The position numbers and the translations under genes were made by a program. Positions 6,927-7,025 of a stretch of 57,545 nt of DNA are shown one piece after another. The stretch's first letter is position 1. Each line of letters opens with the position of its first letter. The stretch lies in the NCBI RefSeq assembly GCF_003334765.1, contig NZ_QOWT01000027.1; one strand, written 5' to 3'. The notes below the pieces were generated by a model. The model made no database searches. It saw only the letters and a program-made list of their open reading frames with translations, and had not been told where the DNA came from. The DNA comes from Escherichia coli. Its GTDB lineage: Bacteria; Pseudomonadota; Gammaproteobacteria; Enterobacterales; Enterobacteriaceae.

Positions 6927-7025
6927 GCCGGATGCGGCGTAAACGCCTTATCCGGCCTACAAAAGCATGCAAATTCAATATATTGCAGAGTTCACGTAGG
7001 CCTGATAAGCGTAGCGCATCAGGCA
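6927..7025. repeat. RIP/BIME element (REP - IHF site - inverted REP)
   Basis: tgccggatgcggcgtaaacgccttatccggcctac, then caaattcaatatattgca (IHF-like core), then inverted REP gtaggcctgataagcgtagcgcatcaggc. Confidence 0.8.

Follow-up and report, generated by a model that had tools for sequence, protein, structure and literature searches.

The window analyzed here, a 57,545-nt stretch of Escherichia coli DNA (contig NZ_QOWT01000027.1), carries two intergenic repeats that are both copies of BIME-1, a non-coding bacterial interspersed mosaic element of about 150 bp that is dispersed in enterobacteria. Copy A lies between ybiA and rhlE, copy B between ybhK (also yvcK) and uvrB, and we put the probability that both are BIME-1 and act by the mechanism proposed below at roughly 90%. 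Anatomy, family membership, the location outside genes at their 3' ends and, for copy B, gain or loss of a 154-bp unit as a block are established directly. The element also goes by the synonyms RIP and RIB; the name RIP reportedly dates from Oppenheim et al. 1993, and RIB is said to come from Boccard & Prentki 1993. As defined in the literature, BIME-1 occurs as single copies in which a Y and a Z1 repetitive extragenic palindromic (REP) sequence stand inverted around a long conserved linker, L, frequently with a site for integration host factor (IHF) (PMC3333891, PMC2817692). All sequence-level traits of this definition are found at both loci, and the preliminary description, which had named an RIP element in the first spacer, read it correctly. 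The element itself is long known and not new. What is refined here is its extent, a 154-bp unit with inverted-repeat ends, the allele of copy B, an IS621 insertion in strain S42, and the identity of the Rfam family ES036 with the L linker. Present in MG1655, both copies should be found among the catalogued K-12 BIMEs, and the result is an annotation point that concerns known repeats in the best-studied bacterial genome; the RefSeq records of MG1655 and W3110 have no repeat features at either locus.

The assignment is carried by the part from REP to REP. We compared both loci with the canonical Y TGCCGGATGCGGCGTAAACGCCTTATCCGGCCTAC and Z1 GCCTGATGCGCTACGCTTATCAGGCCTACG sequences given in the methods of Durrant et al. 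2024 (PMC11208160). In copy A, Y on the plus strand and Z1 on the minus strand agree with them at every position, copy B departs from each by a single mismatch, and matches to Y and Z1 arose 0 times by chance in 100 shuffles of the window. Each locus contains only two REP tails and one linker core and thus forms a single unit, not a tandem array. The CTAC and GTAG tails of the REPs point into the linker in both copies, with GTAG at 6996-6999 and 23700-23703. Both copies contain the 18-nt linker core GCAAATTCAATATATTGC without any change, and within the window it is confined to these two places, the core string caaattcaatatattgca occupying 6970-6987 in copy A. With up to three mismatches allowed, the core has 2 matches in the window against 0.06 expected (0/100 shuffles). 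Chance resemblance is therefore rejected, as linker-core, Y and Z1 matches all lie far beyond expectation.

The two copies also resemble each other far more than their REPs would require. The preliminary description had placed two inverted REPs at 6927-7025 and an almost identical second element at 23631-23730, each downstream of a convergent gene pair. These intervals agree with the REP bounds to within 1 nt (6926-7024) and 2 nt (23631-23728), respectively. In pairwise alignment, the copies share their anatomy and are 88.9% identical over the interval 6927-7025 and 83% over the full unit, while identity just outside the unit is about 52%, which is the background for the global alignments used. 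From this contrast and from the identical 18-nt core it follows that sharing of the generic REP consensus alone, the outcome that had been named as contradicting the description, is rejected. The gene names ybiA and rhlE were likewise correct, and both copies are extragenic between convergent genes, ybiA (+) and rhlE (-) for copy A, ybhK (+) and uvrB (-) for copy B.

The conserved unit is longer than the 99 nt between the outer REP ends. We aligned a family set of 54 copies that have both REPs and were selected by the linker core. Conservation starts about 29 nt upstream of the Y REP (consensus CAGATTGCTGACAAAGTGCGCTTTGTTCAT) and stops about 26 nt downstream of Z1 (consensus AATTTTGCGTTTGTCATCAGTCTCA), which results in a unit of about 152-154 bp, in agreement with the published BIME-1 length of 140 bp (Chiapello et al. 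2005, PMC1187871). The extent given in the preliminary description hence holds for the REP-to-REP part, but it misses these two outer flanks. They are present in about three quarters of the 54 copies, and within the window they accompany only copies A and B and not the other BIMEs. The outermost 16 nt of the family consensus, TCAGATTGCTGACAAA and TTTGTCATCAGTCTCA, are imperfect inverted repeats in which 13/16 positions pair; the terminal inverted repeats (TIRs) of the window copies are weaker, with 10-11 of 17-18 positions pairing. The coordinates of all parts, together with the neighboring genes, are collected in Table 1.

Table 1. Parts of the two BIME-1 copies, junctions of the copy B indel and neighboring genes; positions refer to the window, and NC_000913.3 coordinates are added for the full units.
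Feature	Position in window	NC_000913.3	Strand	Basis or remark
Copy A, full BIME-1 unit, 154 bp	6897-7050	832263-832416	+	per-column conservation, 54-copy alignment
Copy A, left outer flank, TIR-like; diverged version of consensus CAGATTGCTGACAAAGTGCGCTTTGTTCAT	6897-6925		+	family alignment
Copy A, Y-type REP TGCCGGATGCGGCGTAAACGCCTTATCCGGCCTAC; CTAC after hairpin, toward linker	6926-6960		+	0 mismatches to canonical Y
Copy A, linker L of 35 nt, with A-tract followed by the palindrome TGCAA...TTGCA	6961-6995		+	
Copy A, IHF consensus match ATTCAATATATTG	6973-6985		+	1 mismatch to WATCAANNNNTTR
Copy A, Z1-type REP GCCTGATGCGCTACGCTTATCAGGCCTACG; includes IS621 target ATCAGGCCTAC	6995-7024		-	0 mismatches to canonical Z1
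Copy A, outer flank on the right, TIR-like and rich in T; AGTTTTGCGTTTGTTCATCAGCCTGA	7025-7050		+	family alignment
Copy B, full BIME-1 unit	23602-23753	815560-815711	+	family alignment
Copy B, Y-type REP	23631-23665		+	1 mismatch to canonical Y
Copy B, linker L of 34 nt, with match to the IHF consensus at 23677-23689	23666-23699		+	
Copy B, Z1-type REP	23699-23728		-	1 mismatch to canonical Z1
CTTC, left junction of copy B 154-bp indel	23599-23602		+	filled vs empty allele alignment
CTTC, right junction of copy B 154-bp indel	23753-23756		+	filled vs empty allele alignment
ybiA	6363-6845		+	left neighbor of copy A
rhlE	7077-8441		-	right neighbor of copy A
ybhK/yvcK	ends at 23574		+	left neighbor of copy B
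uvrB	23766-25787		-	right neighbor of copy B

Copy B is polymorphic as a block. Its filled allele occurs in 3,677 of 5,426 complete E. coli genomes; roughly one third are without it, and many of these have a uvrB-ybhK spacer that is 154 bp shorter, a length difference between E. coli lineages that presence or absence of BIME-1 explains. In the alignment with strain FDAARGOS_1264, the element corresponds to a single clean gap of 154 columns, placed at 23599-23752 or equivalently at 23603-23756, and these bounds coincide with those of the family alignment to within 1-3 nt. Escherichia albertii has a copy at the same site with the same junction sequences and with REPs and L core intact. We hence conclude that the filled state is old. 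The filled and empty alleles offer a ready comparison for the effect of BIME-1 on the 3' ends of convergent genes.

Further alleles were seen at this locus. In the copy B orthologue of E. coli SCPM-O-B-8794 (L038:2574-2738), the Y REP has lost 18 internal nt, GCCGGATA......CGGCCTAC; the deletion collapses the hairpin, and the remainder of the unit is intact. E. coli U1 (L127:278-392) has no BIME-1 and instead a G+C-rich insert of about 115 bp by the yvcK stop, with the palindrome CCCTCACCCTAACCCTCTCTCCGGAGGGGCGAGGGGAC; this insert is presumably another small dispersed repeat, BoxC-like in appearance. The uvrB-yvcK spacer thus has at least three allelic states. In E. coli strain I3, the region of copy B matches in two parts, with an IS1 inserted between them.

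Copy A is present in 4,301 of the 5,426 complete genomes, and in those strains without it that we examined, the whole ybiA segment is replaced; a clean empty site for copy A was found in none of them. In O157:H7 (L002:1-2500), the type III effector gene espX2 lies beside rhlE in place of this segment, and in strain 43905 (L004:1651-2372) a RelE/ParE toxin and PaaA2 antitoxin pair does. The rhlE-dinG interval is a variable region. The divergent lineage SK1144, at 91% identity, retains copy A. In strain S42 (L003:1225-2502, corresponding to window 6996-7006), copy A is interrupted within its Z1 REP by IS621, an element of the IS110 family with a bridge-RNA recombinase, here annotated as frameshifted. 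Both junctions show the CT core, reading ...ATCAGGC-CT-[IS]-CT-ACG on the minus strand. The sequence ATCAGGCCTAC is a published natural IS621 target (PMC11208160), and it is present in both Z1 REPs of the window, which makes both spacers natural target sites of the bridge recombinase.

BIME-1 is a populous family in E. coli. Linker-like copies were found in 5,426 of 5,426 complete genomes with a 47-nt probe (E ≤ 1e-3), with a median of at least 13 per genome. When one genome per species was scanned for the exact pattern GCAAATTCAATAWATTGC, the matches listed included many core copies in each of the E. coli, E. albertii and Pseudocitrobacter genomes, and single matches without flanking REPs in unrelated taxa. 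The position of family copies relative to genes is not even: the neighbors of 47 copies are convergent in 31 cases, tandem in 16 (10 vs 6 by orientation) and divergent in none. These calls rest on crude longest open reading frames, and orthologous copies in related species are non-independent, so that the counts are descriptive. With 704 convergent gene pairs in E. coli (bioRxiv 10.64898/2026.03.23.713779), by our own estimate about 16% of gene pairs, convergent spacers appear strongly enriched at 31/47; in tandem contexts, the family shows no clear preference of orientation.

Two side observations concern the distribution of the family. Complete BIME-1 units also turned up on short contigs labeled Bacteroides sp. 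(L009, a metagenome-assembled genome), Desulfosporosinus sp. OT (L018, a 262-nt contig) and Collinsella sp. (L080, again a metagenome-assembled genome), most likely by enterobacterial contamination or mis-binning. In two Pseudocitrobacter sequences (L044 and L052), another left flank with Y REP and L comes directly after an L core, and the Z1 that would separate them is missing. Hence, BIME-1 parts can stand in tandem in that genus.

Within the family, the linker varies little in length: among REP pairs that carry the core, it measures 35 nt in 28/40 and 33-37 nt in 40/40. Outside the REPs, nothing in the family is as well conserved as the A+T-rich 35-nt linker, in a profile that is partly biased by the selection of copies through their core. 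A search by REP spacing instead added 3 copies, too few to compare constraint on L with that on the REPs. In copies A and B, ATTCAATATATTG agrees with the IHF consensus WATCAANNNNTTR at 8 of 9 specified positions, and it is preceded by an A-tract that is conserved in the family. We take this arrangement to resemble that of the lambda H' site, which has high affinity. The accounts of PMC3333891 and PMC2817692 credit Boccard & Prentki 1993 with specific IHF binding to the family linker, and from this family literature IHF may be expected to bind copies A and B as well. REP or BIME are mentioned nowhere in the main text of the IHF chromatin immunoprecipitation sequencing paper of Prieto et al. 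2012.

The mechanism we propose starts from the order of parts: an outer inverted-repeat flank, the Y hairpin, an L of 34-35 nt, the opposite Z1 hairpin and a second outer flank. On duplex DNA, the A-tract and ATTCAATATATTG of the linker would form a specific IHF site, as known for the family, and IHF would bend the DNA between the REPs. Upon transcriptional read-through from the convergent genes, the G+C-rich REP hairpins might become 3'-end structures. Judging from other family members, such hairpins could impede 3'-5' exonucleases and partly attenuate transcription, depending on context. The element would have spread as a non-autonomous repeat, probably aided by the REP-associated Y1 transposase TnpA_REP (RAYT), which recognizes a GTAG-tagged REP hairpin on single-stranded DNA. 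This mobilization by TnpA_REP is the least secure step of the proposal. The net selective value of either copy is probably small. Many natural strains do without them.

Predicted RNA folds are in line with the hairpins of this proposal. Folded as single strands, both copies are markedly more stable on both strands than shuffled sequences (z = -3.7 to -5.6). Three of the four predicted folds show Y and Z1 as hairpins of their own. The Y hairpin of copy A is predicted on the minus strand; in the minimum free energy fold of its plus strand, the 3' arm of Y pairs with the Z1 tail.

Several results weigh against the proposed mechanism. The unit that is gained or lost extends about 30 nt past the REP feet and does not end at TnpA_REP cut sites, although cleavage motifs of the iREP type are there (GGCC/TAC in both Y REPs and TGCC/TGAT on the minus strand of copy A, the slash marking the cut). 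Known TnpA_REP cleavage is at iREP feet and linkers (PMC3333891). Matches to the IHF consensus with one mismatch number 63 in the window against 45 expected and are non-discriminating alone; of the IHF-type core in the preliminary description, the consensus match thus stands, but with such matches common in the window its reading as an IHF site draws on family knowledge. RNAalifold found no helix with covariation support in the 54 copies (covariation term -0.06), because the copies are too similar; the hairpins owe their conservation to recent common descent, and a role as RNA is neither established nor refuted by it. A simple terminator scan detected no hairpin-plus-T-run at copy A or copy B, and both loci are absent from the table of bidirectional terminators, as mapped, that bioRxiv 10.64898/2026.03.23.713779 reproduces.

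The position of the ends might be explained if BIME-1 were a self-contained MITE (miniature inverted-repeat transposable element) of about 154 bp that has terminal inverted repeats of its own and is moved as a block by another enzyme or a host pathway; the CTTC at the copy B junctions would then be a target duplication or an excision footprint. Microhomology or a share in the element ends would be other possible origins of this CTTC. As TnpA_REP is known to cut only at REP feet and in linkers, a different mover would be needed. Moreover, the empty copy B allele of about one third of genomes would have to be a precise excision, since E. albertii is filled. Short junction repeats of 26 full-length copies have a mean of 2.96 against 2.60, a slight excess whose value was reached by 13/2000 permutations. 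This test is confounded, and the excess is equally explicable by a longer inverted repeat (CCTCAG...CTGAGG). We regard a MITE with a separate mover as improbable.

Alternatively, the elements might work mainly on RNA, as terminators and 3'-end protectors of the convergent genes, with the IHF site being irrelevant. The strong predicted structure on both strands and the enrichment in convergent contexts (31/47) would suit such a role. So would published data: REPs are described as partly Rho-dependent terminators and as mRNA stabilizers, REP325 is reported to have a dual role of this kind, and convergent genes with an intervening REP show higher expression (all bioRxiv 10.64898/2026.03.23.713779). 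In addition, the scan finds no hairpin-plus-T-run in the ybiA-rhlE spacer, and the ybhK-uvrB spacer offers only a weak 5-bp site on the minus strand (23582-23598), beyond the element toward uvrB. On the plus strand the Z1 hairpin precedes the conserved A/T-GTTTTGCGTTTGT flank; this flank is T-rich and interrupted, and the Z1 stem is bulged. A canonical intrinsic terminator is rejected, as the scan gives no hairpin with a T run at either element. The evidence against a strong terminator role is hence the missing T run, the absence of both loci from the bidirectional-terminator table and the existence of strains without the copies. Copy B is missing from roughly a third of the E. coli genomes, and strains with a replaced ybiA segment are without copy A, though strain 43905 retains the hairpin proximal to rhlE. 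In the supplement of that preprint, no REP is placed close to 815.6 or 832.3 kb. Furthermore, no strong bias is seen in tandem contexts (10 vs 6), and a purely RNA-level role leaves the conservation of the 35-nt A+T-rich linker unexplained, with the reservation that the conservation profile is partly biased. On balance, we consider this explanation unlikely. Somewhat more room, still short of an even chance, is left to the view that BIME-1 is a selfish or neutral, decaying non-autonomous repeat that persists harmlessly at convergent 3' ends. Clean-bounded presence/absence polymorphism would be expected of such a repeat, and many family copies show one-sided substitutions, truncated flanks or internal deletions, as in L038; compensatory changes were not seen in the 54-copy alignment. 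None of the 47 copies lies in a divergent, promoter-containing spacer, as if harmful insertions had been purged, and the IS621 target in the elements is without apparent consequence. However, copy B is old, being at the same site in E. albertii, and still has its REPs and L core intact, and both IHF binding to L and REP effects on RNA are documented for the family. Neutral persistence is, moreover, compatible with the mechanism we prefer and does not exclude it.

A further explanation would make the linker a small RNA (sRNA) gene with a functional TGCAA-N10-TTGCA hairpin, the REPs being incidental. Rfam RF02751 (ES036/CssrF) is matched end to end at 6961-7003 and 23666-23707, with 43.3 and 43.4 bits against a gathering score of 37.6, and between dacB and yhbZ of Shigella flexneri, northern blotting revealed a transcript of about 290 nt that was named cssrF (PMC3071730). 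However, the 43-nt model consists of the L linker and the beginning of Z1, parts of a dispersed repeat of which E. coli genomes hold 13 linker-like copies in the median. A consensus scan of both intergenic regions found no sigma-70-like promoter site, which is weak negative evidence. The outer two stem pairs are non-canonical in copy A, and the inner four, by RNAalifold, are invariant in the 54 copies, a set chosen by that very sequence, and so provide no covariation evidence. The 290-nt band is also far longer than the model and fits a REP-stabilized 3' mRNA fragment better. An sRNA gene is thus very improbable, and we read the RF02751 matches as a repeat-derived family and not as two sRNA genes; BIME-1 identity explains the matches at both sites.

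How do copies A and B compare with known systems? Like BIME-1, they have inverted Y and Z1 REPs, an L linker with an IHF-type motif and a single unit of about 140-154 bp, they are extragenic at 3' ends, and their presence varies between strains; they differ from it in nothing of substance. BIME-2 and atypical BIMEs of the naRNA4/REP325 type belong to the same REP superfamily, but these have Z2 instead of Z1 and short S-type linkers and are without the L core and the outer flanks. According to the literature, gyrase rather than IHF binds them (PMC2817692). Two other REP clusters of the window, at 1652-1728 and 33331-33520, are of this kind and combine Y with Z2-like REPs across short linkers; the latter cluster is a tandem repeat of units, and Rfam naRNA4 (RF02564) matches both above its gathering score. 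With REPIN/RAYT systems, copies A and B share the inverted REP doublet as a unit and GTAG 5' of an imperfect hairpin; in contrast, the unit here reaches some 30 nt past the REP feet, and inverted repeats of its own form its ends. A parallel in architecture outside the REP world is the 155-bp Correia/NEMIS element, which is also about 150 bp long with inverted-repeat ends and a central IHF segment and is almost exclusively intergenic (PMC2229807). In this Neisseria MITE, IHF binding was shown in vitro, and its bounds were derived from filled and empty sites (PMC2229807). Unlike copies A and B, it has no REP hairpins, and sequence and host are unrelated. Correia elements have a TA target duplication. 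As for RF02751, both copies match its model from end to end, but the model covers the BIME-1 linker and not the whole unit.

The window is E. coli K-12 chromosomal sequence in reverse orientation to NC_000913.3, and a 601-nt probe around copy A has 100% identity to numerous E. coli genomes, those of K-12 and others. The intergenic regions of copies A and B correspond exactly to MG1655 832237-832467 and 815548-815738 (NC_000913.3), respectively. Directly after the rhlE stop and outside the BIME-1 unit, the window contains another hairpin, GCCGGGCATAGCCCGGC, at 7052-7072. Its G+C stem has 7 bp, extended to 9 bp in the predicted fold by flanking A-U/U-A pairs, and it has a T run on neither strand and is thus not a canonical terminator; strain 43905, which is without copy A, retains it (L004:2503-2523). 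Elsewhere in the window, the minus strand at 22257-22401 matches the molybdenum cofactor (Moco) riboswitch RF01055 with 103.6 bits, a known feature whose position is that expected for the moaA leader from the K-12 gene order.

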